64,000 bases of DNA from Clostridia bacterium (GCA_003551215.1 PUMD01000133.1:2494-66493), one strand, 5' to 3'. Shown: positions 37,349 through 53,526, numbered from the stretch's first letter. Program-made: numbers and translations. Notes: a model not told the origin generated them from the letters alone.

Positions 37349-37484
37349 GTTGTTTGGTGTAAACGGTTGAGATGTATCGGTCGCCTGTTGGAGTTTGCGG
37401 CCTCTAGCATCGCGCCTTCAGCGACTCCGTATTGTCTTGTCGGCTATGATCTGAAGTTTCGATTTGGAAAGGGGTGCAAAGGTA

Positions 37485-38075
37485 GTGGACAAACAAGGCT
37501 TCGGAGGCCCCAGTGAAGATGGCGAAAGAACCGCTTGGTACGAGCGGCAGATCGACTGGGATGCCGTCGGGGATCGCCAGGAAAGTGCTGATTACGAAGA
37601 GGATATAGACTGGGATGCCGTCGAGGAGAAGGTGGACGAGATAATCAATGAATACGACGGAGATTCCGGCGCCCTGATCGAAGTGCTGCACGAAGTTCAG
37701 GAGCTGGTCGGGTATCTGCCGCAAAGGGTGCAGGTGCGGGTGGCTGACCGTCTCGGTCTATCGGTGAGTGAAGTCTACAGTGTGGTCACCTTTTACTCAC
37801 TGTTTTCTCTGAAACCCAAGGGCGAAAACCACATAACGGTATGCAAGGGTACCGCCTGTTACGTTCGCGGTGCAGCCCAGTTAATTGAAGAACTGGAAAA
37901 TCAACTGGGTATCTCTGTGGGCGATACCACAAGCGATGGAAAGTTTTCCCTGGAAGTGGTGAGGTGTCTGGGGGCGTGCGGGCTTGGTCCGGTAGCGATG
38001 GTTAACAACGAGGATGTTTTCGCGCGAATAACCGTCGATCAGGTTTCCGATATGCTGCAGCAGTACGAGGACTAG
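37485..38075 (+). CDS. hydC: NuoE-like [2Fe-2S] subunit of a multimeric [FeFe] hydrogenase (HydC/HndA-like), with an acidic N-terminal extension
   Basis: Thioredoxin-like 2Fe-2S motifs CKGTACYVRG...CLGACGLGP. N-terminus carries a duplicated IDWDAV segment. Start uncertain (GTG 37485 or TTG 37464). Confidence 0.7.
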   Translation: MDKQGFGGPSEDGERTAWYERQIDWDAVGDRQESADYEEDIDWDAVEEKVDEIINEYDGDSGALIEVLHEVQELVGYLPQRVQVRVADRLGLSVSEVYSVVTFYSLFSLKPKGENHITVCKGTACYVRGAAQLIEELENQLGISVGDTTSDGKFSLEVVRCLGACGLGPVAMVNNEDVFARITVDQVSDMLQQYED

Positions 38076-38085
38076 GCGGGCAATT

Positions 38086-38736
38086 ATGGAAGAGATATCG
38101 CTTCATGTGCTGGACATAGCAGAAAACTCCATAAATTCGGGAGCCACTGAACTGGCCATCACTATAGAGGAGCTGCCAGGTGACGGTCTGCTGTCGGTGA
38201 GTATCGCCGATGACGGGGGCGGTATCGCGTCCGATATGCTTCCAAAAGTGGCGGACCCTTTTACTACCAGTAGGACTACGCGAAAAGTCGGCCTGGGGCT
38301 GGCCTTTTTGCAGGAAGCCTGCTGTTCTGCTGGTGGCAACCTTCAGGTCCGTTCCGATTGCCGGGGTACCGTGGTTGCTGCTACCTTTCAGTACGGACAT
38401 ATTGACCGTCCTCCGCTCGGGGATATGGCCTCCACATTGGTGGTACTGGTGGCAACAAAGCCGGGCTTGCGGGTTTCGTATCGGCACGACGTGGGGGACA
38501 GAACGTTCGAGTTCGATACCAAGCAGCTGGACGAGTGGTTTGGCGACCTGGGCGAAAAACAGCAGCGCAGTCCGGTCGTGCTCCAGTGGCTGAGGCGGTA
38601 TCTTGAGGATAACTTGGAATCGCTGCGCGAGGGAGTACAGACGGATGTTCATAATCAAGGACACGCAGGCGACCAAGACCAAAGCCTGATCCGTCGGTCG
38701 CCGGCGGGGAGCATTGATCAACAACAGACTGACTGA
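38086..38736 (+). CDS. Histidine-kinase-like ATPase domain protein (HATPase_c only) embedded in the hydrogenase operon
   Basis: N box HVLDIAENSINSG. G boxes DDGGGI and GLGLAF. No HisKA/phospho-acceptor domain. Confidence 0.6.
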   Translation: MEEISLHVLDIAENSINSGATELAITIEELPGDGLLSVSIADDGGGIASDMLPKVADPFTTSRTTRKVGLGLAFLQEACCSAGGNLQVRSDCRGTVVAATFQYGHIDRPPLGDMASTLVVLVATKPGLRVSYRHDVGDRTFEFDTKQLDEWFGDLGEKQQRSPVVLQWLRRYLEDNLESLREGVQTDVHNQGHAGDQDQSLIRRSPAGSIDQQQTD

Positions 38737-38754
38737 GCGAAGGGGGAGACAACG

Positions 38755-41700
38755 ATGAGCAAACAGCGCGCTCATGTTTTGGTGTGTGCGGGAGCAGGCT
38801 GCATATCTTCCGGTTGCCGGGAGACGGCGGCTGAACTCAGCAACGCACTCAGAGAACACGGCCTGGAAGATGAGATTCGCGTGGTGGAGACCGGGTGCAT
38901 GGGGCCATGCGATCTGGGGCCTGTGGTGGTAGTTTATCCCGAAGGCGTGCTTTATCAGCAGGTTAAGCCGGAAGATGCTCAACTGATTGCCGAAGAACAT
39001 CTGCTCAAGGGACGGGTAGTCGAAGAGTTAACCTATCGATTGCCCGGCGTCGGGGAATTCATCCCGAGCCAGGAAGAGATGCCGTTTTTTGGTCACCAAA
39101 ACCGGATTGCCCTGCGCAACGCGGGCTTGATTGATCCGGATTCCATAGAAGAGTACATAGCCCGCGATGGTTACGCCGGCTTGGCCAAAGTGCTTTCGTC
39201 CATGCAGCCAGGAGAGGTAATCGACGCTATAAAAGAATCTGGCCTGCGGGGGCGCGGGGGTGCTGGTTTTCCCACCGGCCTCAAGTGGCAGTTTACCAAA
39301 GATGCTGAAGGGGATACCAAATACGTAGTGTGCAACGCCGATGAGGGAGACCCAGGAGCGTTCATGGACCGCAGTATTCTGGAGGGTGATCCCCACAGCA
39401 TCTTGGAAGCGATGGCAATTGCCGGGTACGCGGTCGGTGCCGGTCAGGGTTACGTTTATGTGCGTGCGGAATACCCGCTGGCTGTCGAGCGTCTCCGGCG
39501 GGCAATAGCCAAAGCTCGAGAATACGGACTGCTCGGTGAAAACATCTTCAGCGCGGATTTCTGCTTTGACATCGACATACGAGTAGGCGCCGGGGCGTTC
39601 GTGTGTGGAGAGGAAACTGCACTTTTGGCCTCTATAGAGGGTCGGACCGGACAGCCCAGACCCCGTCCGCCGTTTCCGGCGAATGAAGGCCTGTGGGGCA
39701 AACCTACGCTCCTTAACAACGTGGAGACCTTTGCCAACGTGGCTCCCATAATTCTCAACGGTGCAGACTGGTTCGCCGGAATAGGTACTGAGGACAGCGC
39801 TGGAACCAAGGTGTTTGCCCTTGCCGGTGATGTTATCAATACCGGTCTTGTTGAGGTTCCCATGGGCACTCCGCTGAGCGATATTGTCTTTGACATAGGC
39901 GGGGGAGTACCAGATGGAAGGAAATTCAAAGCTGCTCAGACCGGCGGCCCTTCGGGAGGATGTATCCCCGCGGAATATCTGAATACTCCGGTTGATTACG
40001 AGTCGCTGACAGAACTGGGCACCATTATGGGGTCAGGCGGCCTGATAATTGTTGATGAGGACACCTGTATGCCCGACTTCGCCAAGTTCTTCTTGGAATT
40101 TGTTCAGGATGAGTCTTGCGGTAAGTGTCATCCGTGTCGTATAGGTACCAAGCGCATGCTGGAAATACTTGAGCGCATAACTGCCGGTGAAGGAGAAGAA
40201 GGGGATATCGATCGCCTGGTTGAGCTGGGGGAGCAGATAAAAGAGCTGGCTCTCTGCGGGCTAGGTCAGTCTGCCCCCAATCCGGTGCTGACCACCATCG
40301 AGTACTTCCGTGAAGAGTACGAGGCACACGTAAGGGACAAGGAATGTCCCGCCTCGGTGTGCGCCTCTCTGTTTACTTCTCCCTGTCAGAACGCCTGCCC
40401 GGCAGATGTGGACGTCCCACTTTACATCGACCTGGTGCGGCAGGGTCGTTTCGAAGAAGCCTACCGTGTGATCAAGACTGAGATGCCGCTGCCTGGAGTC
40501 TGCGGATACGTTTGCAACCATCCCTGCGAGGGTAAGTGTCAGCGGGTGCAGATCGATGAATCGATTGCCATCAGATCCCTGAAGAGATTTGCCACCGATG
40601 CCGTACTGCAGGACAGCGGTGAGCTGCCCGCCCTCGAACGTCTGGCAGAGCGGGAAGGGAAAGTGGCTGTTGTGGGTTCCGGTCCAGCCGGGCTCTCTGC
40701 GGCTCACTTTTTGGCGCGAGTCGGATACTCGGTCACCGTTTTCGAAGCCATGCCGGTATTGGGCGGTACTCTGGCTGCGGGAATCCCTGAGTATCGCTTG
40801 CCAGAAGATGTTCTGGAAGCGGAGATTGAAACGGTGAGCAAGCTGGGAGTCGAGTTCAGAACCGGCGTCTGTGTGGGTAGCGACATTACGCTTGATGAGC
40901 TCAAACAACAGGGTTATGAGGCCATATTCCTGGGAGTTGGTGCTCACAAGAGCCGACGGCTGGGTATACCCGGCGAGGATCTCGACGGCGTGACCCACAG
41001 CATCGAGTTTCTGCGTGACGTAAACGTAGGTCAGCAGACCGACCTCAGTGGTGCTTCCGTGGCGGTAATCGGCGGTGGTAATGCAGCAGTCGATGCAGCC
41101 CGTACGGCTGGTCGTTTGGGGGCCCGAGATGTGAAAATCGTCTACCGGCGCCGAGAAGAAGATATGCCGGCGCTGGATGAGGAAATAGAAGATGCCCTGG
41201 CCGAAGGCATAGAGCTGATAACTCTGGCTAACCCGACGAAGGTGATAGGCCGTGACGGTAGAGTAAGAACCCTCAAATGCCAGCAAATGCAGCTGGGCGA
41301 ATACGATCAGAGCGCCCGGCCCCGACCGATTCCTGCAGAAGGCTCCACCTTCGACCTGGACGTGGATGTGGTGATCGTGGCCATCAGCCAGCAGCCAGAA
41401 GGTGAGTTCACTCTGGAGGGTAAACAGGTGGAGACCACCGATTGGGATACTTTCCCGGTGGATGAAGACACTCTGGCCACCAACGTTCGGGGAGTATTCG
41501 CAGGCGGTGACTGCGTAACCGGCCCCGATACTGTGATCGAAGCCGTTGCAGCTGGTAAGAGGGCGGCCGCGGCCATTGACGTATATCTCGGAGGCGACGG
41601 ACAGATCGTACGCAAGCCTGCCATGGATCGAGTGATCGGTCACGAACTGCTGGAAACCAAGACCGAGCGCGTGGCCATGCCGAAAGTTGCCGCTGACGGG

Positions 41701-41823
41701 CGAAAGGGATTCTCGGTTGTCGAGTTAGGGTATTCCCCAGAGCAAGCAGTGGCGGAGGCCAGAAGATGCCTCAGGTGCGATGTTGAAGACGTGTCTCAGT
41801 CGTCGGGCGAGGCTGCGAATTAA
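38755..41823 (+). CDS. hydB: NuoF-like flavoprotein subunit (HydB/HndC-like) fused to a GltD/NfnB-like NAD(P)H oxidoreductase domain
   Basis: N-terminal thioredoxin-like 2Fe-2S (CAGAGC...CMGPC). NuoF FMN/NADH site ([16 protein letters not shown]; [12 protein letters not shown]). Two ferredoxin-like CxxCxxC clusters. Then a GltD-type module ([19 protein letters not shown]...; [17 protein letters not shown]). 1022 aa single ORF. RBS GGGGGAG. Confidence 0.8.
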
Positions 41824-41842
41824 ATGACCGGAGGTGAGTGCA

Positions 41843-43576
41843 GTGAGTGAAGTTTCTTTAACCATAAACGGACGTGACGTATCTGCGGCTCCCGGGACAA
41901 CGATTCTTGAGGCAGCCAAGCAGATCGATGTTGATATACCAACCCTGTGCTATCTCGAGGGGATCAACGAGATAGGCGCCTGCCGGGTCTGTGTTGTCGA
42001 ATGTGAGGGCAGCCTGCTGGCTGCCTGTACGACCCCGGTGACTGATGGAATGTCCGTGGTCACTAACAGTCCGAAGGTGAGAGCTGCCCGTCGAACCAAT
42101 GTTGAACTCATCCTCTCAGACCACGATGGCGACTGTCTATCCTGCAGCCGCAGCATGAACTGTGAGCTGCAGACCATTGCCCGCAACCTCGGAATTCGGG
42201 AAATCAGATATGAGGGAGAGATGTCCAGCCACCCTCGAGATGAGTCCAGTCCTTCACTGGTCCGGGATCCAGACAAATGCATTCTCTGTCAGCGGTGCTC
42301 AAGTGTCTGCAAGCAGGTTCAGGACGTGGAGGCCATCGATACCGTGGGACGCGGTTTTCAGATGCAGGTCGGTCCGGCCTTTGAGCAGACCATGGACGAG
42401 ATAGCCTGTGTCAATTGCGGTCAATGCATTCTCGTGTGCCCCACTGGTGCAATCACTGAGAAGGATTACAGAGAGGAAGTCTGGGGTGCTCTGAGCGACC
42501 CTGACAAACACGTAGTGGTTCAGACTGCTCCCGCTGTCCGGGTGTCCATTGGTGAAACTTTGGGCATGGAGCCTGGCAGTATTGTAACCGGACAGATGGT
42601 GGCCGGGCTGCGTCTTTTGGGCTTCGACAGGGTGTTTGACACTGATTTCGCAGCTGATCTGACTATAATGGAGGAAGGGAGCGAACTGCTGGCCCGCCTG
42701 AACGAAGGCGGTACGGTCCCGCTGCTGACCTCCTGTAGCCCCGGGTGGATAAAATACGTGGAGCATTTCTATCCGGAATTCACGGATCATCTCTCTACGT
42801 GCAAGTCTCCGCAGCAGATGTTCGGGGCACTGGCCAAGACTTTCTACGCGGAGAAGGCGGGAATCAAACCGGAAGATATTTTTGTGGTATCGGTAATGCC
42901 GTGCACCGCGAAGAAATTTGAGGCCCAGAGGCCGGAAATGGGAGCCAGCGGTTACGCCGACGTGGATGTCGTTCTGACCACCCGCGAGATGGGGCTGATG
43001 TTTTCGGAAGCCGGAGTAGACCTGAGACATCTCGAGGAGGAAGAGTTCGACGATCCTCTCGGGATATCAACTGGTGCCGCGGCTGTTTTCGGCGCTACCG
43101 GTGGCGTGATGGAAGCGGCTCTTCGCACGGTGTACGAGCTGGTTACCGGAGAGGAGCTTGAGGAGCTGGACTTTCACGATGTCCGTGGGTTGCAAGGAGT
43201 CAAGGAAGCCGAAGTTGATCTGCAGGGTACCACGGTTAAAGTGGCGGTGGCCCACGGCCTGAGCAAGGCACGCGGTGTCCTTGACGCCATTAAAGAAGGA
43301 AAAGCCGACTACACGTTTGTGGAAGTGATGTGCTGTCCGGGAGGTTGCATTGGCGGTGGCGGTCAGCCCCTACCCACGGATGACGAGATCAGACAGAAGC
43401 GGATCGACGCCATCTATCAGGTTGATAGAGACATGCCCCTGCGTAAATCGCACGAGAACCCGGCCGTGCAGGCTCTGTACGAGGAATATCTAGGTGAACC
43501 TCTCAGCGACAAGTCACATGAGCTTCTGCACACCGATTATTTGAGGCGCGAGGCGCACGCCGGGTATATCGGCTGA
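41843..43576 (+). CDS. hydA: [FeFe] hydrogenase catalytic subunit HydA (HndD-like), with an L1 motif variant
   Basis: N-terminal plant-type 2Fe-2S and 4Fe-4S ferredoxin domains. H-cluster motifs L1 TSCSPGW (canonical TSCCPxW), L2 MPCTAKKFE, L3 EVMCCPGGCIGGGGQP. GTG start after GGAGGTGA. Confidence 0.85.
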   Translation: MSEVSLTINGRDVSAAPGTTILEAAKQIDVDIPTLCYLEGINEIGACRVCVVECEGSLLAACTTPVTDGMSVVTNSPKVRAARRTNVELILSDHDGDCLSCSRSMNCELQTIARNLGIREIRYEGEMSSHPRDESSPSLVRDPDKCILCQRCSSVCKQVQDVEAIDTVGRGFQMQVGPAFEQTMDEIACVNCGQCILVCPTGAITEKDYREEVWGALSDPDKHVVVQTAPAVRVSIGETLGMEPGSIVTGQMVAGLRLLGFDRVFDTDFAADLTIMEEGSELLARLNEGGTVPLLTSCSPGWIKYVEHFYPEFTDHLSTCKSPQQMFGALAKTFYAEKAGIKPEDIFVVSVMPCTAKKFEAQRPEMGASGYADVDVVLTTREMGLMFSEAGVDLRHLEEEEFDDPLGISTGAAAVFGATGGVMEAALRTVYELVTGEELEELDFHDVRGLQGVKEAEVDLQGTTVKVAVAHGLSKARGVLDAIKEGKADYTFVEVMCCPGGCIGGGGQPLPTDDEIRQKRIDAIYQVDRDMPLRKSHENPAVQALYEEYLGEPLSDKSHELLHTDYLRREAHAGYIG

Positions 43577-43604
43577 TATGGAAGAGCCTGGAGGTGAAGC
43601 TGAC

Positions 43605-43970
43605 ATGAAGATTGAGTCTCTGGATGATCTCCGCAAAGTCCGGGAGCAGGCCAAGGAAGGCATCAGCGTGCGGGAAGGCGGCGATGTCAAGATAGTAGTG
43701 GGCATGGGCACATGCGGCATCGCTGCTGGCGCGCGTGAGGTACTCTCGGCGGTACTGGAGGAGCTGGCGGAGAGAAACATTGTTGGAGTTGATGTTACAC
43801 AGACCGGTTGTGCTGGCTTGTGTGAACATGAACCCCTCCTTGAAGTCATCACCGAGGACCAGCCGCGCGTAGTGTACGGAAAGGTGACACCAGATCGGGC
43901 CAGGAAAATAGTGGTACAGCACCTGATCAATAGGCAGATAGTAGGTGAATGGGTACTCAAGAAGGATTGA
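43605..43970 (+). CDS. Stand-alone thioredoxin-like [2Fe-2S] ferredoxin (14-kDa HndB/HydD-like)
   Basis: GMGTCGIAAGAREV...TGCAGLCEHEPLLEV motifs. ATG 7 nt after GGAGGTGA. Confidence 0.65.
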   Translation: MKIESLDDLRKVREQAKEGISVREGGDVKIVVGMGTCGIAAGAREVLSAVLEELAERNIVGVDVTQTGCAGLCEHEPLLEVITEDQPRVVYGKVTPDRARKIVVQHLINRQIVGEWVLKKD

Positions 43971-44006
43971 GTTGGTTGTGCGAGAAGCCCATACGAGGGA
44001 ATCGTC

Positions 44007-44600
44007 GTGTCGGGCGGCGTAGCGATATTCTCGCTCCGGCACGACGATAGCCCTCCGATATCGCCCATTGTATATGCGGGGCTGGACCTTTTGTCCCGGG
44101 TGGTTGTCGGGCAATTCGATACGGAAGAAGGTGTCCTCTTGCAGCTGGAATATGAAGTAAAGGGGATGGATTTCCGGAATGCAGGCAAGGCTTCAACTAG
44201 AGTCCGGAAGAGGCTGCAGCAGCTGGGCCTCGACTCGACAACCCTCAGAAGCGTTGCGGTTATCTGTTATGAGGCGGAGATGAACATCGTAATACACGCC
44301 TATGAAGGACGCCTTATAGTGGATATAGATACGACCATGATCGAGATAACAGCCCGGGACCGGGGACCAGGGATTGAGGACATAGAACGTGCCATGCAGG
44401 ACGGGTTCTCTACGGCGCCCGAGCACGTGCGCGAAATGGGTTTCGGTGCGGGTATGGTCCTCACAAACATCAAGAGGCTGGCTAATTCCCTGCAGTTGGA
44501 ATCCACTGAGGGTGAGGGTACATGTTTGAAAGCGGTAGTCTACTACGGCTACCCACAGAAAGGTGGTGTTCAGTCGTGCCAGGGAAGTTTCACTCCGTGA
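44007..44600 (+). CDS. RsbW/SpoIIAB-type serine-protein kinase (anti-sigma-regulatory-factor-like HATPase)
   Basis: HATPase_c_2-like boxes (EAEMNIVIHA; ARDRGPGI; GFGAGM). GTG start after GAGGGA. Confidence 0.55.
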   Translation: MSGGVAIFSLRHDDSPPISPIVYAGLDLLSRVVVGQFDTEEGVLLQLEYEVKGMDFRNAGKASTRVRKRLQQLGLDSTTLRSVAVICYEAEMNIVIHAYEGRLIVDIDTTMIEITARDRGPGIEDIERAMQDGFSTAPEHVREMGFGAGMVLTNIKRLANSLQLESTEGEGTCLKAVVYYGYPQKGGVQSCQGSFTP

Positions 44601-46258
44601 AGCTGATAGAAGACGAGTGTGAGGGCTGTACCAACTGTATTCAAAATTGTCCTACCGAGGCCATTCGGGTACGGGACGGCAAAGCACAGATATTTGAGGA
44701 ACGTTGCATCGACTGCGGCGAATGCATAAGGCATTGCCCGAATCAGGTCAAGACGGCGGTTACGGATGATCTGAAGGCGCTCGGACGCTTTCAGTATAAC
44801 GTCGCTATACCAGCTCCCGCTTTTTTTGGGCAATTTGATCAGGGAGTAACGGCGGATGACATCCTCGCGGGTCTGCTTAACGTGGGCTTTGACGATGTGT
44901 TTGAGGTGGCAGTTGGTGCTGAAGCGGTAACCCTGGCGATTCGCCGATACATTGAAGGAGCCGCCTGCCGTTCACCGCTTATATCTTCGGCATGTCCGGC
45001 TATTGTACGCCTCATCCAGATCCGGTTCCCTGATCTGCTGGATCAGATAATACCCATTCACACTCCGATGGACATGGCTGCCAGACTGGCCAAAAGGAAA
45101 GTGGCCGATGAGCGAGATCTAGCCCTTGAGGATATAGGAGTGTTTTTTGTCAGTCCGTGCCCGGCGAAGGTCACCGCTGTCAAGGAACCGCTGGGAACCA
45201 GCGAGACAGATGTGGACGGGGCAATAGGTGTCGGCGAAATTTACGGCCAGGTGCGTTCCAAGACCGGGCGCGGCGAAGAGAAAAACCTGAGCAGAGCATC
45301 CGGTTTGGGGGCTCAATGGGGGTTTTCCGGTGGTGAAAATCAGGCCATCAACTCAGGAGTCCTTCTGGCGGTAGATGGGATTCAGAGTGCCATTTCAGTC
45401 CTGGACGGCGTGGAAAAAGGCGAGCTGCAGTCAGTAGATTACATTGAGTGTCAGGCCTGCATCGGTGGCTGCGTGGGTGGGGCTTTGATGGTTCAGAACC
45501 CGTTTTTGGCGCGCTCGCGGGTGGAGCGCATGGTGGAACAGATGGATCCGGGCAAAAGATACGAGCCTAGTGTGGACATGGCAGAAGCTACCCAGCTGTT
45601 TGACCGCGGGGAATTCGATCTTACCGAACCCATCCTCGCTCGCCCAGCCATGCGCCTGGATGAGGATGTCAACGTAGCTATGGACAAAATGGCCCGGTTG
45701 GATGAATTGAGCGAGGAACTGCCTGGTTACGATTGCGGTTCCTGTGGAGCTCCTACCTGTCGTGCCCTGGCTGAAGATATCGTTCAGGGGTTGTCAGTCC
45801 GAACCGACTGCATTTTTGAACTGCGAGAAGAGGTCTCTACCCTGGCTGAACAGATAAGCACAATTGTCCAGAGGCGCATGCCGATGATGAGCACCGAGGA
45901 GGAGCGGAAAGTGTTTGATGAGCTCACTCTCAGCCATGTTGCAGACGAGCTGGAGCTCTGGGCAGTGGCATTTGAAGATGTCCTGGACTCCCGTGTGATC
46001 CGAGGAGCTTACTGCTCAGACCTTCTCAGCGATGTAATGGCTAACGCTGGGGAGGGGAGCCTGTGGATTACCATTCAGACCCACCAGAATATTGTGGCGG
46101 TGGCCCTCATGGTTTCGCTTGGAGCCATAGTGGTCTGCGGAGGACGCGAACCCAGCCCGGGAACTGTGGTGAGGGCTGAAGAGGAGAACATCCCACTGCT
46201 GATTGCCGAGGATGATTCGTACACAGTGGCGGCCAAACTGCACAGCTTGACAATGTAG
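44576..46258 (+). CDS. hydS: Putative sensory [FeFe]-hydrogenase-like protein (HydS/HfsB-like) with a C-terminal Fe-S (CGxCGxxxC) and DRTGG-like domain
   Basis: Two 4Fe-4S ferredoxin motifs. H-cluster-like L1 SSACPAIV (proton-relay Cys replaced by Ala), L2 SPCPAKV, L3 ECQACIGGCVGG. C-terminal CGSCGAPTC and ...VCGGREP. Start uncertain (GTG 44576/44597 or ATG 44522). Confidence 0.65.
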   Translation: MPGKFHSVKLIEDECEGCTNCIQNCPTEAIRVRDGKAQIFEERCIDCGECIRHCPNQVKTAVTDDLKALGRFQYNVAIPAPAFFGQFDQGVTADDILAGLLNVGFDDVFEVAVGAEAVTLAIRRYIEGAACRSPLISSACPAIVRLIQIRFPDLLDQIIPIHTPMDMAARLAKRKVADERDLALEDIGVFFVSPCPAKVTAVKEPLGTSETDVDGAIGVGEIYGQVRSKTGRGEEKNLSRASGLGAQWGFSGGENQAINSGVLLAVDGIQSAISVLDGVEKGELQSVDYIECQACIGGCVGGALMVQNPFLARSRVERMVEQMDPGKRYEPSVDMAEATQLFDRGEFDLTEPILARPAMRLDEDVNVAMDKMARLDELSEELPGYDCGSCGAPTCRALAEDIVQGLSVRTDCIFELREEVSTLAEQISTIVQRRMPMMSTEEERKVFDELTLSHVADELELWAVAFEDVLDSRVIRGAYCSDLLSDVMANAGEGSLWITIQTHQNIVAVALMVSLGAIVVCGGREPSPGTVVRAEEENIPLLIAEDDSYTVAAKLHSLTM

Positions 46259-46282
46259 GGGTCGATAATCTTGCGGTCCTGG

Positions 46283-47017
46283 ATGGTGGATCTGCACATC
46301 CATACCGCCCTATCGCCGTGTGCCAGTGATGATATGACACCGGACAACATTGTGGCTGCTTCTCGAGAACGCAATCTCGACGTCATAGGAATAGCTGATC
46401 ATAATTCAGCGGCGAATGTGCGGGCGGTGGTGGCGGCTGCCGACAGCTTTGACCTGGTCGTGCTGCCTTGCTTGGAAGTTCAGACTTCCGAAGAGGTACA
46501 TGTGCTGTGCGTCTTCGATGATCTGGAGAGCGTTGCGGCATGGCAAGAGCATGTCTACCGGCACCTGCCAGATCGGGCCAATGATGAGGAGATTTTCGGG
46601 CGCCAGCATCTGTACGACGAATCGGGTATACTGTCGGGCAGCGAAAACCAGCTGCTATTGGTGAGCGCGGATTTGACCCTGGAATCAGTTTTTGAGGTGG
46701 TTTCGGTGCTGGGAGGGGTGTGTATTCCGGCCCATGTTGACCGTCGCAGCTTCGGACTTCTGGGAGTGTTGGGATTCGTCCCGGAGTCGTTGGACATATC
46801 AGCAGTCGAGGTGTCGCCCAATTTTCCGGGTGATGATGGTTTGAGCATACCGGACTCGGCCGCTACCGTACGTTTTTCTGATGCCCACACTCTGTCAGAT
46901 CTGGGGAACCAGTTTACAACTATGTGGATGGAAGCCCCGACTGTTGAGTGCCTGATGCAGGCCTTCAGGGGAGATGGAGGGAGAAGGGTCAAACCGCGGT
47001 TCGCCAGGGGGGATTAG
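46283..47017 (+). CDS. PHP-domain phosphoesterase
   Basis: HIHTALSP...ADHNS...PAHVDR His/Asp motifs of the polymerase and histidinol-phosphatase fold. Confidence 0.6.
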   Translation: MVDLHIHTALSPCASDDMTPDNIVAASRERNLDVIGIADHNSAANVRAVVAAADSFDLVVLPCLEVQTSEEVHVLCVFDDLESVAAWQEHVYRHLPDRANDEEIFGRQHLYDESGILSGSENQLLLVSADLTLESVFEVVSVLGGVCIPAHVDRRSFGLLGVLGFVPESLDISAVEVSPNFPGDDGLSIPDSAATVRFSDAHTLSDLGNQFTTMWMEAPTVECLMQAFRGDGGRRVKPRFARGD

Positions 47018-47043
47018 CAGCCCTACAGAAAGGAGGAGGTGAC

Positions 47044-49152
47044 GTGGCACAGCAGGTAGTTTACACGGTCTTGGATCAATGCCGTCGCTGTTATCACTGC
47101 GTGCGTGAATGCCCGGTGAAAGCGATAAAGGTGGAAGAAGGTCAGGCCTGGGTGATTGAGGAGCTGTGCATCTCATGCGGAACTTGTGTTAGAAACTGTC
47201 AGCTGCGGGCCAAGACTTACCTCAATGTGGTTCCAGAGTGTGAAAAAGAGCTGGGAGCCAGCCGTCACTCCGTGGCCATGCTTGCACCCTCCTTTGTTGC
47301 CTCATTTACCGAAGTGCAGCCCGGTCAGGTGGTAGCAGCCCTCAAGCGCCTGGGCTTCGATCAGGTGGTGGAAGTGGCCTATGGAGCCGAGTTGACGGCT
47401 TTGGCGTATGAGCAGTTTATCAATGAAGTCATGAACAACGGTGCGGGAGCAAATCAGAATGGCCACACGCAACGTCCACCGTTCCTCAGCAGCGCCTGTC
47501 CGGCGATAGTCAATCTGGCTCAGATTCACTACCCTCAGCTGCTGGAGCATCTGGTGCCGATTGTCTCTCCCATGGTTGCCCTGGCCCGTTTTCTTCGCTG
47601 GCGCGCCGACAGGAGCGAAGAGCCGCAGCCGTTTGTGGTGTTCGTGGGTCCCTGCGTGGCGAAAAAAAGCGAAGTTGACGACCCTAATCTGCGCGGTGAC
47701 GTCGATCTGGTTTTGACCTTCGCAGAACTCCGTCAGATGTGCGAGGAGAAAGATATTGATATCGAAGCGCTACAGCCGGCCGAATTCGACCCTCCCCATC
47801 CTTCGGTAGCCCGAATTTTTCCTCTTTCCGGGGGACTGTTGCGTTCGACGGGGGAACGTACGGATCTGATCAATCCTGATTTCGAAGTGGTTGAAGGTAA
47901 AAACGACGTGGTTGAGCTCTTTGATTCGTTGACCAATGGTGAGTCGGTAGACACCTCCCTGGTTGATATCCTGCTGTGTGAAGGATGCATTGCCGGTCCG
48001 GTGATAGACAGTGACTTGCCCTATATAAAACGACGCGAACAGGTGGTCAACTACACGCGTAGCACGGTAGGAAGCAGTGAACTGAGGCGTGGTAGTCCAC
48101 CGGAAAGCTGTTTTCCCTTGGAGCACCTTAGAAGGACTTTCGAGCCGCAGGCACAGCATCTTGCGGTCCCATCAGAGGAGGAAATACGTTCAATACTGCA
48201 ACGTGTGGGGAAGTCAGAGCCCGAAGATGAGCTGAACTGCGGGGCTTGTGGTTACGGTACCTGCCGGGATAAGGCGGTAGCTGTCCACCGGGGACTGGCA
48301 GAGGCGGAAATGTGCCTTCCTTATATGCTCGAGAAAATGCAGGAGACAGTAAAGCAGTTAGAAGAATCCTATGAAGAGCTGCATGAAATGTACCATGAGC
48401 TGCAGGAGACGCAGAAAGAGCTGGTGCAGGCGGAAAAGATGTCCTCCTTGGGGCAGATAGCGGCGGGAGTGGCCCATGAGATTAACAATCCGCTCAGCGG
48501 CATCCTCCTGCACGTCGACCAGGTAGAGCGGAACGATGACCAACACGTACAGACCATCAGGAAGGAAGCTGCCCGCTGCAAAGATATAGTTCAAAATCTG
48601 TTGAACTTCGCCAGACAATCAAGACTTCGAAAGCAGCCAGTCGGGTGGAATTCGTACGTGCAACAGGTGGTAGAGCAGTATCGAGGCCAGATGTCAAAGC
48701 AAGTGGAGGTTGAGCTCGACCTGCATGCCAGCGCCGACCGCCAGATACAGTTGGACCCCGAGCAGATGAAGAGGGTGCTGACAAACCTTCTGGACAATGC
48801 TGTGGATGCAGTGGATGAATCGGGCAGAGTGACAGTGGCAACTCACTATAATCAGTACACCAAGGAGGTCTCGGTGGTCGTCCAGGATGATGGTGAGGGC
48901 ATATCGGAAGAGAACCAACAGCGGTTGTTTACCCCATTTTTCACAACCAAAGAGCCAGGTAAGGGAACTGGTCTGGGGCTGCCTATGGCCCATGGCATTG
49001 TGAAGATGCACCGGGGTGATATTGAAATTGACTCTGAGGTGGGAGCGGGCACAGAGGTCAAGGTAACGCTGCCTAGGGACACTGAGGGAGCTGCGGCAAT
49101 CGTCGGCGCAGGTGAACCACGCAAGGAAGGTTCATCCGACGTAATTTCGTAA
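47044..49152 (+). CDS. Sensory [FeFe]-hydrogenase-like domain fused to a histidine kinase (HisKA plus HATPase_c)
   Basis: Two CxxCxxC ferredoxin motifs. L1 SSACPAIV, L2 GPCVAKKSE, L3 CEGCIAGP. Then H box AHEINNPLSG and G boxes (DDGEGI; GTGLGLPMAHGIV). GTG start after GGAGGAGGTGA. Confidence 0.7.
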   Translation: MAQQVVYTVLDQCRRCYHCVRECPVKAIKVEEGQAWVIEELCISCGTCVRNCQLRAKTYLNVVPECEKELGASRHSVAMLAPSFVASFTEVQPGQVVAALKRLGFDQVVEVAYGAELTALAYEQFINEVMNNGAGANQNGHTQRPPFLSSACPAIVNLAQIHYPQLLEHLVPIVSPMVALARFLRWRADRSEEPQPFVVFVGPCVAKKSEVDDPNLRGDVDLVLTFAELRQMCEEKDIDIEALQPAEFDPPHPSVARIFPLSGGLLRSTGERTDLINPDFEVVEGKNDVVELFDSLTNGESVDTSLVDILLCEGCIAGPVIDSDLPYIKRREQVVNYTRSTVGSSELRRGSPPESCFPLEHLRRTFEPQAQHLAVPSEEEIRSILQRVGKSEPEDELNCGACGYGTCRDKAVAVHRGLAEAEMCLPYMLEKMQETVKQLEESYEELHEMYHELQETQKELVQAEKMSSLGQIAAGVAHEINNPLSGILLHVDQVERNDDQHVQTIRKEAARCKDIVQNLLNFARQSRLRKQPVGWNSYVQQVVEQYRGQMSKQVEVELDLHASADRQIQLDPEQMKRVLTNLLDNAVDAVDESGRVTVATHYNQYTKEVSVVVQDDGEGISEENQQRLFTPFFTTKEPGKGTGLGLPMAHGIVKMHRGDIEIDSEVGAGTEVKVTLPRDTEGAAAIVGAGEPRKEGSSDVIS

Positions 49153-49458: not shown

Positions 49459-49737
49459 ATGGATCAAAGGATTGGCGTGGTGGGGATCGTGATAGAAGAC
49501 CGAGAGTGCATCGCACCTGAGGTTAACCGAATACTGAGCCAGTTTGGGGATGTTATCGTCGGCAGAATTGGGGTGCCGCGTCCGGACCATGACTTGGCGG
49601 TGATCGCGCTTATCGTACAGGGCACTGCAGATCAGATGGGAGCTCTTACTGGTCGGTTGGGGAATCTACCTTCGGTTCAAGTGAAGTCCGGAATGACCTC
49701 AAAGAGAGTGAAGACAGACGGGGAGGGATGCAGGTGA
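49459..49737 (+). CDS. Small ACT-like putative iron-only-hydrogenase system regulator (TM1266-like)
   Basis: About 92 aa, MDQRIGVVGIVIEDRE... Typical size and position immediately upstream of hydG. RBS GGGAGG. Confidence 0.5.
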   Translation: MDQRIGVVGIVIEDRECIAPEVNRILSQFGDVIVGRIGVPRPDHDLAVIALIVQGTADQMGALTGRLGNLPSVQVKSGMTSKRVKTDGEGCR

Positions 49738-51137
49738 AGCAGCTGCAGGAGGTGATTTCGGAGGAGAGAATATTCAATGTGCTTTCGGATGCTGCCGGAT
49801 CCAGCCGGCAGGAAGCCGGACGCATCATAGACAAGGGCCGCAACCTACAAGGTCTGAGCCCCAAAGAGGCGGCAGTTCTGCTGACCATCGACGAAGAGGA
49901 TCTGCGGCAGCTATTGCTGCAGGCAGCTCGAGAGGTAAAGGAACAGATTTACGGAAAGCGGCTGGTGATCTTCGCTCCGCTTTATCTGGATAATATCTGC
50001 CATAACAGCTGTCTTTACTGCGGTTTCCGAAAAGAGAACCAGAAAATAGAACGACGGCGGTTGTCGATGGAGGAAATAAAAAAAGAAGTCTCTGCTTTGC
50101 AGAAGGAAGGACACAAGCGGCTGTTGATTCTTACCGGCGAGAAGCGGGATGCGGATCTGGACTATCTGCTGGATGGAATAGCTGCTGCATACCAGGTGCA
50201 GACCAAAAAGGGAGGACAGACTCGCAGGATCAACGTCGAGGTCGCTCCCATGACCGACAAAGAGTTTGAGTCTCTTGCGGAAGCGAATATAGGTACGTAT
50301 ACCTGTTTTCAAGAGACCTACCACCGCCCCACCTATAAGAGAATGCACCCGCGAGGGCGGAAGGCAGATTTCGACTGGCGTCTGACGGTTATGGATCGCG
50401 CTCAGCGTGCTGGTATAGACGATGTGGGTATCGGAGCGCTTTTTGGTCTTTATGATTACCGCTATGAGGTGGTGGCAATGCTCCTGCACGCTCAGTATTT
50501 GAGTGAAACCTACGGAGTCGGACCGCACACTGTATCTGTCCCGCGGTTGCAGCCCGCTGCCGAGGCACCGATACGCAAGTCCCCTTACCCGATTTCCGAT
50601 GAGGATTTCAAGAAATTGGTCGCCGTGCTCCGATTGGCTATCCCTTATACCGGGATAATCCTGAGCACCCGGGAACCGGTTTCCCTGCGTAATCAGCTAT
50701 TTATGCACGGTGTTTCTCAGATCAGCGTCGGCTCCCGGACTGCCCCCGGTGCCTACCAGCAAGACGAGCAGGGCTGCGGCAAGCGAGCGCAGTTTACTCT
50801 GCACGATAGTCGTCCTATGTCCGAAGTGGTGGCTGAAGTCGCCAAGGCCAACTATATTCCCAGTTTTTGCACTGCCTGCTACAGAGAAGGGAGAACCGGT
50901 GAGGCTTTCATGGATCTGGCCATACCGGGCAAGATTAGCAACTACTGCAAGCCGAATGCCATGTTGACCTTCAAGGAATATCTCACGAACTATGCCGATG
51001 AAGTGACCACAAAGGCAGGAGAGGCCTGTCTCAACCACCATCTGCGGGAAATCAAGAGCGGAGATAAACAGCTAGCCCAATGGATTGAGCGGGCCTTCGA
51101 CCGCATGCAACGGGGGGAACGCGACATTTACCTGTAG
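49728..51137 (+). CDS. hydG: [FeFe] hydrogenase maturase HydG (radical SAM tyrosine lyase)
   Basis: Radical-SAM CHNSCLYCGF. C-terminal auxiliary cluster motif C-x2-C-x22-C (FCTACYREG...ISNYC). 469 aa. Confidence 0.85.
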   Translation: MQVKQLQEVISEERIFNVLSDAAGSSRQEAGRIIDKGRNLQGLSPKEAAVLLTIDEEDLRQLLLQAAREVKEQIYGKRLVIFAPLYLDNICHNSCLYCGFRKENQKIERRRLSMEEIKKEVSALQKEGHKRLLILTGEKRDADLDYLLDGIAAAYQVQTKKGGQTRRINVEVAPMTDKEFESLAEANIGTYTCFQETYHRPTYKRMHPRGRKADFDWRLTVMDRAQRAGIDDVGIGALFGLYDYRYEVVAMLLHAQYLSETYGVGPHTVSVPRLQPAAEAPIRKSPYPISDEDFKKLVAVLRLAIPYTGIILSTREPVSLRNQLFMHGVSQISVGSRTAPGAYQQDEQGCGKRAQFTLHDSRPMSEVVAEVAKANYIPSFCTACYREGRTGEAFMDLAIPGKISNYCKPNAMLTFKEYLTNYADEVTTKAGEACLNHHLREIKSGDKQLAQWIERAFDRMQRGERDIYL

Positions 51138-51140
51138 GAG

Positions 51141-52445
51141 GTGATCGCCATTCAGAAAACACCGAGAGCAACTCGTCCACATATAGCAGTTTTCGGCAGG
51201 CGCAATGTTGGTAAATCCACCTTGGTCAACGCGCTGGCAAACCAAAACGTAGCAGTGGTTTCGTCGGTACCGGGTACCACAACTGATCCGGTTTACAAAT
51301 CAATGGAACTTCACCCGTTCGGACCGGTTGTGCTGATTGATACTGCCGGAATAGATGATGCGGGCGACCTGGGGGAAGTACGGGTGAACCGCACCAGGCG
51401 TGTGCTTCGCCGGACCGATCTGGCTTTATTGGTGGTCGATCCGCGGCAGGGAATCGGCGAGTGGGAAACGGACTTTCTGTCAGAGGTTAACCGCGATAAA
51501 GTTTCTGTGCTGGCAGTCATAAACAAAATTGATCGAGCGGAAAGAAAGGATCTAAGAGGTATCCGGCGAGAAGTCAGAAACGGGCTGGATCTCCCGGTAG
51601 TCCGGGTCAGTGCCGAGCAGCATAGGGGCATTGATGCACTGCGGGATGAGATAGTGGCCCATCTTCCCCGCAGGGCGAAGGCAGATACCATCGCTGCGGA
51701 CCTTGTATCGGAGGGGAATCTGTGCCTGCTGGTCACTCATATCGATGAGGCTGCTCCCCAGGGCCGGCTGATTTTACCTCAGGTGCAGACGCTGCGCGAT
51801 CTGTTGGACCATGGCTGTCCTGCGCTGGTGACGAAAGAAAGCGAACTACCTCTGGCCCTCAGCAGATTATCGTCGCCGCCGGGTCTGGTTATATGTGATT
51901 CGCAGGTGTTTCCCCGGGTACAGGAGTGCTTGCCGGGGGATGTTTCATTGACCAGCTTCTCCATTTTATTTGCGCGACTTAAAGGGGATTTTCAATTCTA
52001 CCTGCGGAGCCTGCAACAGTTGGAGAGACTTGCCCCCCAAACGAGGATCATCGTAGCCGAGGCATGTACGCATAGGGTTACGCACGAGGATATAGGGCGC
52101 GTCAAGATCCCGCGCATGTTGTGCAGCCGATACCCCGATCGAGCATTTATATTTGATTACTGCTCCGGCAGCGATTTTCCCGATGACCTCGATCCCTACG
52201 ATCTAATGTTGCACTGCGGCGGGTGCATGTTGAATCGCACAGAAGTTCTGTCGCGTCTCGGCGAAGCCCAGGAGGCCTCACTTCCAGTAATAAACTATGG
52301 TATGCTCCTCGCCTACCTCAACGGTATCCTTGGACGAGCCCTTCAACCGATACTGGGCAAACAACCTGCTTATCAATATTGTGGCATCGGGGATGATGTG
52401 CGCGTTGGTGACGATGCAAGGCGAGGTGAAGATGATGTCAGTTAG
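51141..52445 (+). CDS. hydF: [FeFe] hydrogenase maturation GTPase HydF
   Basis: GRRNVGKSTL (G1), DTAG (G3), NKID (G4). C-terminal CxH...HCGGC cluster motif. Start codon uncertain (GTG 51141 abuts the GGAGG). Confidence 0.8.
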   Translation: MIAIQKTPRATRPHIAVFGRRNVGKSTLVNALANQNVAVVSSVPGTTTDPVYKSMELHPFGPVVLIDTAGIDDAGDLGEVRVNRTRRVLRRTDLALLVVDPRQGIGEWETDFLSEVNRDKVSVLAVINKIDRAERKDLRGIRREVRNGLDLPVVRVSAEQHRGIDALRDEIVAHLPRRAKADTIAADLVSEGNLCLLVTHIDEAAPQGRLILPQVQTLRDLLDHGCPALVTKESELPLALSRLSSPPGLVICDSQVFPRVQECLPGDVSLTSFSILFARLKGDFQFYLRSLQQLERLAPQTRIIVAEACTHRVTHEDIGRVKIPRMLCSRYPDRAFIFDYCSGSDFPDDLDPYDLMLHCGGCMLNRTEVLSRLGEAQEASLPVINYGMLLAYLNGILGRALQPILGKQPAYQYCGIGDDVRVGDDARRGEDDVS

Positions 52446-53526
52446 TGAGACAGCATACAGTCACGAGTATATCCACAACATCTTAAAACGGGCACACTGC
52501 CAGGGCCCGGAACTATCCGTAGGGGAGATCGAGGCGCTGCTCAGCATAGGTCATCCCGACGGGCTCGAATCTCTCTACGCTATTGCTGATAAGGTTCGGA
52601 AAGATACGGCAGGTGATGGGATTCACCTGCGAGGACTGATAGAGTTTTCCAATTACTGTCGCAGAAATTGCCTGTACTGCGGGCTGCGCAGGGCTAACCG
52701 TCGTCTGACCCGGTATCGGATGGATCAAACAGAGGTTTTGGGAGTTGTGCAGGCCATGGCGGAGCGGGGTATAAAGACCGTGGTATTGCAGTCGGGGGAA
52801 GATCCGCACTTCACACAGGCGCGGATGGTTTCCCTCGTTGAAAAGATAAAATCGCGTTTTGATATAGCCATTACCCTGAGTGTGGGTATACGATCTCAAA
52901 AGGATCTGATCGCTTTCCGGGCGGCGGGTGCTGACCGCTATCTACTGCGCCATGAAACTGCAAACCGCCAGCTATACTCTCAGCTGCACCCAGATTCCCG
53001 ACTCGGCGACCGAGTAGAAATGCTGCATGCGCTCAGCGAATTGGGATATGATATCGGCACTGGACCCATGGTGGGGCTTCCCGGACAGACTTACCGAGAT
53101 CTGGCCTTGGATATTGATCTGGCCCGACGACTCAAAGCCGATATGTTTGGCGTTGGTCCGTTCATCCCTCATCCGGATACTCCCCTGAGTGAGGCACAGG
53201 AGGGTACAGCAGAGGACACTTTCAAGATGATTGCGCTGGCACGTATAGTTTTAAGGGAGGTTCACATACCTGTGACTACCGCCCTGACCACCCTGGATGC
53301 CGAGGCCCGGGAGAAGGGATGGAACAGAGGGGCAAACGTAGTTATGCCGAACGGCACGCCAGCTCCTTATCGCGAGCAGTATGAATTATATAAGGATAAG
53401 AGATGCCTGCAGGATTCGCTGAAGCGATGTGCGGTTTGTCTGCAGATGCGGGTTCAGTCCGTTTCACGCCATATCAGCTCAGGTTATGGTGATTCCCTGC
53501 GCAGTGACAGACAGAGGTCTTCCTGA
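52432..53526 (+). CDS. hydE: [FeFe] hydrogenase maturase HydE (radical SAM)
   Basis: CRRNCLYCGLRRAN radical-SAM motif, about 364 aa. ATGATG start after GGCGAGGTGAAG, overlapping the hydF stop. Confidence 0.8.
   Translation: MMSVSETAYSHEYIHNILKRAHCQGPELSVGEIEALLSIGHPDGLESLYAIADKVRKDTAGDGIHLRGLIEFSNYCRRNCLYCGLRRANRRLTRYRMDQTEVLGVVQAMAERGIKTVVLQSGEDPHFTQARMVSLVEKIKSRFDIAITLSVGIRSQKDLIAFRAAGADRYLLRHETANRQLYSQLHPDSRLGDRVEMLHALSELGYDIGTGPMVGLPGQTYRDLALDIDLARRLKADMFGVGPFIPHPDTPLSEAQEGTAEDTFKMIALARIVLREVHIPVTTALTTLDAEAREKGWNRGANVVMPNGTPAPYREQYELYKDKRCLQDSLKRCAVCLQMRVQSVSRHISSGYGDSLRSDRQRSS

Follow-up and report, generated by a model that had tools for sequence, protein, structure and literature searches.

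A hydrogenase NuoF-type subunit predicted to carry a GltD-type NADPH module in place of its ferredoxin-like domain

A 64,000-nucleotide stretch of DNA from a Clostridia bacterium (GCA_003551215.1, PUMD01000133.1:2494-66493; hereafter the window) contains an open reading frame (ORF) in which a HydB/NuoF-type core is joined to a GltD-type module with two Rossmann sites. Judged from its sequence and gene context, the fused ORF encodes the flavoprotein subunit (beta, HydB or BfuB type; here HydB*) of a multimeric group A3-type [FeFe]-hydrogenase composed of HydC, HydB* and HydA; the complex probably also includes a small HydD-like protein. The GltD-type module is predicted to occupy the place of the ferredoxin-like domain with which canonical HydB proteins end. 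We give a probability of about 55% to the reading that this is a HydABC/Bfu-type hydrogenase whose low-potential arm would end in an NADP(H) site, and through the fused subunit hydrogen metabolism is probably linked to NADPH. Bifurcating hydrogenases play a central part in how acetogens, fermenters and syntrophs conserve energy, and both the docking of ferredoxin and the role of clusters B3 and B4 are still under study. The enzyme family described here is a sizeable, conserved and uncharacterised variant of the HydABC/Bfu family, and it is not rare in databases.

The fusion is a genuine reading frame

The ORF runs without interruption from 38755 to 41823 on the plus strand and encodes 1022 residues; no internal stop was found on translation of the window, as the original prediction had stated. 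A Shine-Dalgarno sequence, GGGGGAG, lies 7–8 nt 5' of its start. The predicted junction near 40.3 kb can be placed at residue ~541, corresponding to nucleotide ~40375.

An assembly or annotation artefact, in which adjacent hydB and gltD genes were merged by a missing stop or a frameshift, would have only the unusual length of the protein and its uninformative public name, 'NuoF', in its favour. An independent Logan assembly of SRR490150 yielded a 6.7-kb contig (L001) that corresponds to window positions 38082–44787 with one mismatch, located outside the fused ORF, and the protein that it encodes across the junction is identical to the window protein. The best 120 matches in a collection of 5.8 billion proteins share 60–79% identity and the same Pfam content, and nearly all are ~1010 residues long. 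Three of these 120 are encoded by cultured strains (Thermanaeromonas toyohensis ToBE, Moorella sp. Hama-1 and Pelotomaculum terephthalicicum JT), and in the first two of these the fused gene lies on a 3.3-Mb contig. Clustering at 50% identity gives 11 or more groups of full-length fused proteins, with identities as low as 35%, and more than 125 full-length fused homologues with 50–79% identity were found. The G+C content at third codon positions is similar on either side of the junction (0.58 versus 0.61), and the HydB half is without a C-terminal domain of its own; therefore, the halves are not two intact genes. Because the independent assembly, the many full-length homologues, the fused clusters and the matching third-position G+C content agree, we conclude that the fused ORF is real and that an assembly artefact is ruled out. 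The chance that two genes were joined in error is negligible for practical purposes.

An antisense ORF of 460 residues (40261–41643, minus strand) lies wholly within the GltD-coding part and is, in all likelihood, a shadow ORF that reflects the GC richness of the coding strand.

A bifurcating-type core with an exchanged C-terminal domain

Residues 2–541 of the fused protein match the bifurcating HydB 7q4v_B with an E value of 1e-243, and the identity to 7q4v_B and 7t2r_B is 63–68%. The Pfam domains Complex1_51K (residues 159–330, E 5e-48) and NADH_4Fe-4S (residues 441–525, E 2e-34) were recognized. The Pfam SLBB domain scores 22 bits, under its 27-bit cutoff; the region is gap-free against solved HydB structures, and its GGPSG motif is invariant. 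A motif for flavin mononucleotide (FMN) and NAD(H) binding is found at residues 166–175 and the cluster motif SCGKCHPCR at residues 454–462, with C455, C458, C461 and C501 as predicted ligands of the B1 [4Fe-4S] cluster. The presence of these domains and motifs bears out the earlier description of a NuoF-like part with an FMN/NADH site and a cluster motif. Directly before the junction, the B2 hinge motif of the fused protein aligns with AHIRDKKCPAGVC of 7q4v_B. In Bfu-family B subunits, B2 is a Zn site formed by three cysteines and one histidine, the latter being a hallmark of these subunits (PMC12018979).

Beta subunits of bifurcating hydrogenases are distinguished from non-bifurcating ones by the pattern A/E..M near the NADH site, by a phenylalanine rather than a tyrosine near FMN, and by GGPSG (Losey et al. 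2020, PMC7311640). All of these signatures are present in the fused protein (A202-F203-M204, F282 and G397-GPSG401), and they are invariant or nearly so in an alignment of 125 fused proteins that share 50–100% identity. The HydB core is thus, as far as its signatures tell, complete and of the electron-bifurcating type, and a non-bifurcating beta subunit of the S. wolfei type was dismissed by the same signatures.

The match to 7q4v_B stops at residue ~543 of 599, immediately after AH(V/I)RDK(E/K)CPA(S/G)VC. In canonical HydB/BfuB proteins, the last ~55 residues make up a ferredoxin-like domain, whose two CX2CX2CX3CP motifs hold clusters B3 and B4. Structures of Thermococcus sibiricus NfnABC revealed that this domain takes low-potential electrons from the mobile [2Fe-2S] cluster of BfuC and reduces ferredoxin (PMC12018979). 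The fused protein has no Fer4-type Pfam match that would indicate a C-terminal domain of the ferredoxin-like type that holds a pair of [4Fe-4S] clusters. The CxxCxxCxxxC motif is present in none of the 125 fused proteins, the window protein included, whereas 72 of 73 canonical HydB proteins recovered from genome contigs contain two copies. Because the ferredoxin-like domain is missing from the fused proteins, it seems to have given way to the GltD module rather than been extended with it; we therefore dismissed a simple addition of GltD behind a complete HydB. This departs from the original prediction, which implied that the GltD part follows the ferredoxin clusters of HydB. The module is grafted, in permuted form, onto the B subunit at the very hinge where the ferredoxin-like domain normally starts. 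Since the part that was exchanged is the ferredoxin exit, the mechanistic reading of the enzyme changes.

These features bear on a further explanation, namely that the protein belongs to a non-bifurcating, NAD(P)H-dependent hydrogenase in which loss of the ferredoxin-like domain ended bifurcation, and which simply equilibrates H2 with NADH, NADPH or both when the H2 partial pressure is low, as in syntrophs. In its favour, the canonical ferredoxin exit is missing, syntrophs and related organisms are among the hosts (Pelotomaculum, Syntrophomonadaceae, Moorellales), and syntrophs do have non-bifurcating NADH-dependent [FeFe]-hydrogenases (PMC7311640). However, the beta-subunit signatures of such enzymes (T/S..K/S/A, tyrosine for phenylalanine, no GGPSG) are not present, the bifurcating pattern is invariant across the fused family, and both the N-terminal [2Fe-2S] domain and the hallmark histidine are kept. 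We consider a non-bifurcating enzyme improbable.

An AlphaFold2 model built with 65 homologues is of high confidence, with a mean predicted local distance difference test (pLDDT) score of 86.3 and a predicted template modelling (TM) score of 0.78. The only internal stretch below a pLDDT of 50 comprises residues 537–539, at the hinge. No solved chain spans both halves, the best query-normalised TM score being 0.51. The proposal that a NuoF-like HydB and a GltD/NfnB-like module reside in one protein was confirmed by the Pfam domains and by alignment to HydB and NfnB structures.

A permuted GltD-type module

Residues 542–1012 match residues 102–570 of 9bov_A (E 2e-120 to 3e-121), as well as 9n5u_A and 8oh5_C. 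The same residues match T. maritima NfnB (4ylf_B) with E values of 5e-105 to 2e-106. The spacing of the predicted cluster ligands is C544-x3-C548-P, C583-x3-C587-x3-C591-x3-C595 and C1005-x2-C1008. The last pair belongs to the RRCLRC segment, which aligns to the N termini of NfnB (residues 15–43 of 4ylf_B) and of P. furiosus NfnL (residues 7–48) and which in StnC and NfnA has the same C-terminal order as in the fused protein. Because this CxxC-bearing segment is C-terminal here and N-terminal in NfnB and NfnL, the module is assigned, on alignment, as a circularly permuted, insertion-type GltD module of the Stn/Nfn-Bfu enzymes. The earlier designation as NfnB-like therefore stands for the fold and the motifs, and does not hold in the sense of a plain NfnB copy, the module being of the permuted StnC/NfnA type.

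The motifs for flavin adenine dinucleotide (FAD) are GSGPAG (residues 641–646) and IPEYRLP (677–683), and those for NADPH are GGGNAA (773–778) and YRR (797–799). The YRR motif lines the 2'-phosphate pocket in NADPH-dependent relatives. Both Rossmann sites that had been claimed are thus in place, at residues 641 and 773. The two CxxCxxC motifs claimed for the second half are absent, its clusters being served by the differently spaced cysteines given above; CGKCHPC, which belongs to the NuoF part, is the sole CxxCxxC that the protein contains.

The permuted module of StnC and NfnA serves as the NADPH input, and its FAD is reported to be non-bifurcating (PMC10482914). Arg681 of the fused protein is equivalent to the arginine that H-bonds to N5 of FAD in bifurcating NfnL; it is also kept in the non-bifurcating StnC and NfnA. 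As a marker of bifurcation, this arginine was set aside as uninformative, given its conservation in relatives of both kinds.

Conservation and origin of the fused family

All 24 predicted metal ligands are invariant in 125 of the 125 aligned fused proteins, among them those of B5, B1 and B2 (C438, H525, C531 and C536) and the eight cysteines of the GltD clusters. The FAD/NADPH-binding residues, whose absence on alignment would have spoken against a second nucleotide site, are likewise present throughout: the FAD GxGxxG, GGGN.A, Tyr797 and Arg798 are invariant in all 125 proteins, and Arg799 is found in 124. This pattern suggests purifying selection on both halves of the protein. The fused design is widespread in anaerobes.

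In a rough neighbour-joining tree built from the N-terminal 540 residues, one split unites all 47 of the 47 fused proteins with six canonical ones, and the fused proteins fall into two subgroups. The topology would fit a single origin or a small number of them. That the fused proteins are strictly monophyletic was not upheld, as the split also takes in the six canonical proteins and the tree is too crude to decide the matter.

Variants of the architecture were also observed. Five proteins of ~650 residues (P0189, P0191, P0197, P0209 and P0225) consist of the C-terminal 4Fe-4S helical domain of NuoF followed by Fer4_20 and Pyr_redox_2, without the FMN domain, and have the same NuoF/GltD junction as the fused protein. 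In P0153 (1130 residues), the NuoF::GltD fusion is accompanied by an extra C-terminal Fer4 dicluster domain.

Proposed function

In the mechanism that we favour, the two [4Fe-4S] clusters of the GltD module would stand in for B3 and B4 and connect the HydBC core with FAD. This would give the complex two pyridine-nucleotide sites, one for NAD(H) at FMN and one for NADP(H) at FAD. H2/H+ would be coupled to both nucleotides, approximately as 2 H2 + NAD+ + NADP+ <-> NADH + NADPH + 2 H+. Physiological potentials are ~-380 mV for NADP(H) and ~-280 mV for NAD(H) (Bfu review), and NADP(H), being more negative in vivo than NAD(H), may take over from ferredoxin, or act beside it, as the partner of lower potential. 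A second pyridine-nucleotide site had been proposed earlier from the fusion; it is the natural inference because a NuoF::GltD fusion, invariant FAD/NADPH motifs and a hydrogenase operon are found together. A coupling of H2 to NADP(H) through the B subunit is supported by the bifurcating core, the swapped ferredoxin domain, the invariant ligands, the hydrogenase operon and an archaeal HydB precedent. More tentatively, the fused enzymes could form a distinct Bfu class in which ferredoxin gives way to NADP(H) bound at the B subunit's GltD module, with bifurcation or confurcation between the two nucleotide pools; we regard this specific form as a minority possibility.

Several points weigh against an arm that ends in NADP(H). 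A bifurcating core that gives electrons of ~-500 mV to NADP+ would waste energy. Whether the FAD of the fused protein bifurcates cannot be told from its sequence, because the N5-contacting arginine is kept in both classes of relatives. The presumed preference for NADPH over NADH is based solely on the YRR motif common to NADPH-dependent relatives. It is equally reasonable to place a ferredoxin site at the GltD clusters, as in NfnSL. Finally, no biochemical characterisation of any member of the fused family was found in the full texts covered, which is weak evidence given that most subscription journals lie outside them.

If ferredoxin docked at the distal [4Fe-4S] cluster of the GltD module, FAD and NADPH would add an Nfn-like branch, making the complex a hub for H2, NAD, ferredoxin and NADP and effectively a HydABC with a built-in transhydrogenase. 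In the GltD-like subunit of NfnSL, the two [4Fe-4S] clusters do lead to ferredoxin (PMC5861303), and the retention of the bifurcating-type signatures would be best explained by a low-potential acceptor that is still in use. However, the experimentally located ferredoxin site of the Bfu enzymes lies between the C-terminal domain of BfuC and the B3/B4 domain (PMC12018979), and the latter is missing here. The module is moreover of the permuted StnC/NfnA type, which acts as NADPH input with a non-bifurcating FAD (PMC10482914), and the operon has no NfnS/PyrK-like partner. We regard docking of ferredoxin at the GltD clusters as possible but doubtful. The Nfn-like transhydrogenation that had been suggested for the fused protein does not apply in its classical sense: no Pfam domains of an NfnA/NfnS (PyrK-like) partner were detected among the annotated genes at 36.6–53.5 kb. 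A classical Nfn mechanism is disfavoured because of the permuted Stn-type module and the missing NfnS partner.

The fused enzymes offer a natural, ready-made experiment on the low-potential branch, in which the B3/B4 domain has been swapped for an NADPH/FAD module and the bifurcating core left intact. Because of such enzymes, models of the metabolism of Moorellales, Pelotomaculum, Syntrophomonadaceae and Chloroflexota would have to link the H2, NADH and NADPH pools differently. If NADP does replace ferredoxin, syntrophs and acetogens would have a ferredoxin-independent means of using the ~100 mV gap that exists in vivo between NAD(H) and NADP(H).

Comparison with known systems

Among the closest known systems are the HydABC enzymes of T. 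maritima, A. woodii and T. kivui (PDB 7p5h, 7q4v and 8a6t; Bfu family), which have the same partners, a NuoE-like HydC and a HydA of group A. Their HydB core is 50–68% identical to that of the fused protein and shares FMN, B1, B5, the B2 hinge and the bifurcating signatures. They differ in that their HydB carries the B3/B4 domain, where the fused protein has a GltD module of ~480 residues with FAD and an NADPH site.

StnABC and NfnABC (PDB 8oh5, 9bov and 9n5u) contain the same permuted GltD module, the best PDB match to residues 542–1012, along with a HydBC-like core, and use NADPH as a substrate. In these enzymes, however, the module is inserted in the NuoG-like A subunit and feeds the mid-potential path, while the B subunit keeps its ferredoxin-like domain. 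In the window enzyme, the module is on the NuoF-like B subunit, and the A subunit is a true hydrogenase. NfnB/NfnL (4ylf_B, 5jca_L) and GltD share the fold with the module at 38–45% identity, including two [4Fe-4S] clusters, FAD, NADPH and the motifs GxGxxG, GxGxxA and YRR. In contrast to the fused module, which is permuted, joined to NuoF and without an NfnA/NfnS partner, their CxxC segment is N-terminal.

A precedent exists among archaea. A model of a group F hybrid [FeFe]/[NiFe] complex shows HydB bearing a glutamate-synthase domain, which was proposed to be the site of a low-potential acceptor (Greening et al., Cell 2024, PMC11216029). This HydB, described as having a 'glutamate synthase (GltA) domain', is likewise a NuoF-like diaphorase subunit, the likeness being one of description. 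It is part of a hybrid complex that is encoded by five genes and includes a NuoG-like HydD and a [NiFe] module, was only modelled, and was not discussed in connection with NADP. In the same body of full texts, again weak evidence, no bacterial NuoF::GltD fusion is described, the archaeal complex being the only precedent.

The 'glutamate synthase-linked' group A2 of HydDB also pairs a group A hydrogenase with a GltD-type partner. There, the GltD-type domain is in a protein directly 3' of hydA, 'but not NuoF', whereas here NuoF::GltD is one polypeptide accompanied by a NuoE-like subunit. By the HydDB rule, a NuoF-containing neighbour leads to group A3, and A2 is reserved for 'GltD but not NuoF'. 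In the window, a gene with a NuoF domain does adjoin a group A hydA, but it lies upstream, where the classifier rule specifies downstream. BfuB proteins have been defined by IPR011538, IPR019575, the SLBB domain IPR019554 and the ferredoxin-type IPR017896 (Schut et al. 2022, PMC9304861). The fused protein has the NuoF FMN and 4Fe-4S domains, the B2 histidine and neighbours of the BfuC and BfuA types, and is without IPR017896. The fused proteins were probably missed by the Bfu survey because they do not have the required ferredoxin-type domain. PGAP names them 'NADH-quinone oxidoreductase subunit NuoF', and the fused protein scores below the cutoff of every NCBIfam model. The family is thus probably hidden or mis-binned by current schemes, as 'NuoF' in PGAP and as plain A3 in HydDB.

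A formate-dehydrogenase-associated subgroup

A distant subgroup of fused proteins, with 51–54% identity, occurs in Dehalococcoidales, Chloroflexota, Syntrophomonadaceae and a deltaproteobacterial metagenome-assembled genome (MAG). In loci L002, L003, L007 and L008, the fused subunit and a NuoE-like gene adjoin a protein that matches only the NuoG-like N terminus of HydA. A Pfam run on L007 and L008 revealed that this neighbour combines the NuoG N terminus with a molybdopterin domain of the formate-dehydrogenase type, and that metV and metF follow directly 3' (Table 1). The hosts of these FdhA-like clusters are Syntrophomonadaceae and Chloroflexota/Dehalococcoidales MAGs. The arrangement suggests an NADP-linked formate dehydrogenase module of the methyl branch of the Wood–Ljungdahl pathway. 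Because it is also paired with a partner of the formate-dehydrogenase type, the fused B subunit appears to be a reusable module that is not confined to hydrogenase. If NADP replaces ferredoxin in the hydrogenase, this subgroup would do likewise with formate, beside MetVF.

The hydrogenase operon and its surroundings

The fused gene lies between genes for a NuoE-like HydC, equivalent to BfuC, and for HydA (Table 1). The gene order hydC-HATPase-(small 2Fe-2S)-hydB*-hydA is shared by the loci of Thermanaeromonas toyohensis, Moorella sp. Hama-1 and Pelotomaculum terephthalicicum, and the NuoE-like hydC is found 5' of the fusion in L082–L084 and L002–L009. One locus from a Desulfitobacteriia MAG (L009) retains hydC-hydB*-hydA, with homologues of the two small genes not detected.

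HydA comprises Fer2_4, a NuoG-type 4Fe-4S domain, a 2x4Fe-4S domain, the H-cluster domain and a small-subunit domain, and it scores 920 bits against the NCBIfam model NF040763 FeFe_hydrog_A6 (cutoff 765). Its motifs are TSCSPGW (residues 299–305), MPCTAKKFE and, in L3, EVMCCPGGC (497–508). The textbook L1 motif of HydA is TSCCPxW. The variant TSCSP is found in ~60% of the HydA proteins in the fetched loci, whether HydB is fused or canonical. A tie between TSCSPGW and the fusion was dismissed, since the variant is equally common beside canonical HydB.

The small thioredoxin-like protein encoded 3' of hydA has a homologue (49–56% identity) just 5' of hydB* in L082–L084 and is a candidate for a HydD/HndB-like fourth subunit. 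The GHKL/HATPase-domain protein encoded between hydC and hydB* has the same position in the Thermanaeromonas, Moorella sp. Hama-1 and Pelotomaculum loci. No kinase dimerisation or sensor domain was recognized in this protein (38086–38736), which is presumably regulatory or accessory.

Table 1 Predicted features of the fused protein, its operon and the formate-dehydrogenase-type loci (residue numbers refer to the fused protein)
Feature	Coordinates	Strand	Evidence and details
hydC, NuoE-like thioredoxin-fold [2Fe-2S] protein, BfuC equivalent	37464..38075	+	Pfam 2Fe-2S_thioredx, E 2e-51; NCBIfam NuoE/HoxE models
GHKL/HATPase-domain protein between hydC and hydB	38086..38736	+	Pfam HATPase_c, E 1e-12
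hydB::gltD fusion, 1022 aa	38755..41823	+	ORF, Pfam, alignments, conservation, model
N-terminal thioredoxin-like [2Fe-2S] domain (B5 site)	38764..38994	+	Pfam 2Fe-2S_thioredx, residues 4-80; ligands C11, C16, C48, C52
NuoF core: FMN/NAD(H) site, putative SLBB, B1 [4Fe-4S]	39139..40344	+	Pfam, alignment, invariance
B2 (Zn-type) hinge site	40327..40362	+	H525, C531, C536, with C438 upstream; directly before the domain junction
GltD-type Fe-S domain at the position of the missing B3/B4	40375..40614	+	Pfam Fer4_20, residues 531-619, E 9e-26; C544, C548, C583, C587, C591, C595
FAD domain and NADPH domain	40660..41589	+	Pfam Pyr_redox_2, residues 636-934, E 2e-37
C-terminal segment ending RRC1005LRC1008	41695..41781	+	Contributes the final two cysteine ligands to the GltD clusters
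hydA, group A [FeFe]-hydrogenase catalytic subunit	41834..43576	+	Pfam Fe_hyd_lg_C, E 2e-99
Small thioredoxin-like [2Fe-2S] protein	43578..43970	+	Weak Pfam 2Fe-2S_thioredx match
Regulatory block: HATPase_c_2 protein; HydA-like + FeS + DRTGG; PHP; sensory Fe-hydrogenase-like::histidine kinase	44007..49152	+	Pfam
Maturases hydG, hydF and hydE-like radical SAM gene	49728..53526	+	Pfam Radical_SAM + BATS; HydF_dimer, HydF_tetramer; Radical_SAM
FdhA-like (Fer2_4 + NuoG Fe-S + molybdopterin, 901-928 aa), NuoE-like, NuoF::GltD, MetV-like (DUF5981), MetF (methylenetetrahydrofolate reductase)	L007:4747-12621; L008:4763-12685		

As listed, the hydC ORF has a TTG start and an acidic N-terminal extension of ~50 residues (window 37464–37620) with a repeated 'IDWDAV'. 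The true start is probably further downstream, because homologues are 157–162 residues long and have no such extension. Outside the operon, an ORF of 563 residues on the minus strand (32266–33957) has no Pfam match at E 1e-6.

Homologues of the regulatory block adjoin the operon in L082 and L083. The HATPase_c_2 protein of the block is anti-sigma-like, its HydA-like protein has a 'Putative Fe-S cluster' domain, and the sensory hydrogenase carries HisKA/HATPase domains. In this composition, the block (44007–49152) resembles Hfs-type H2-sensing sets.

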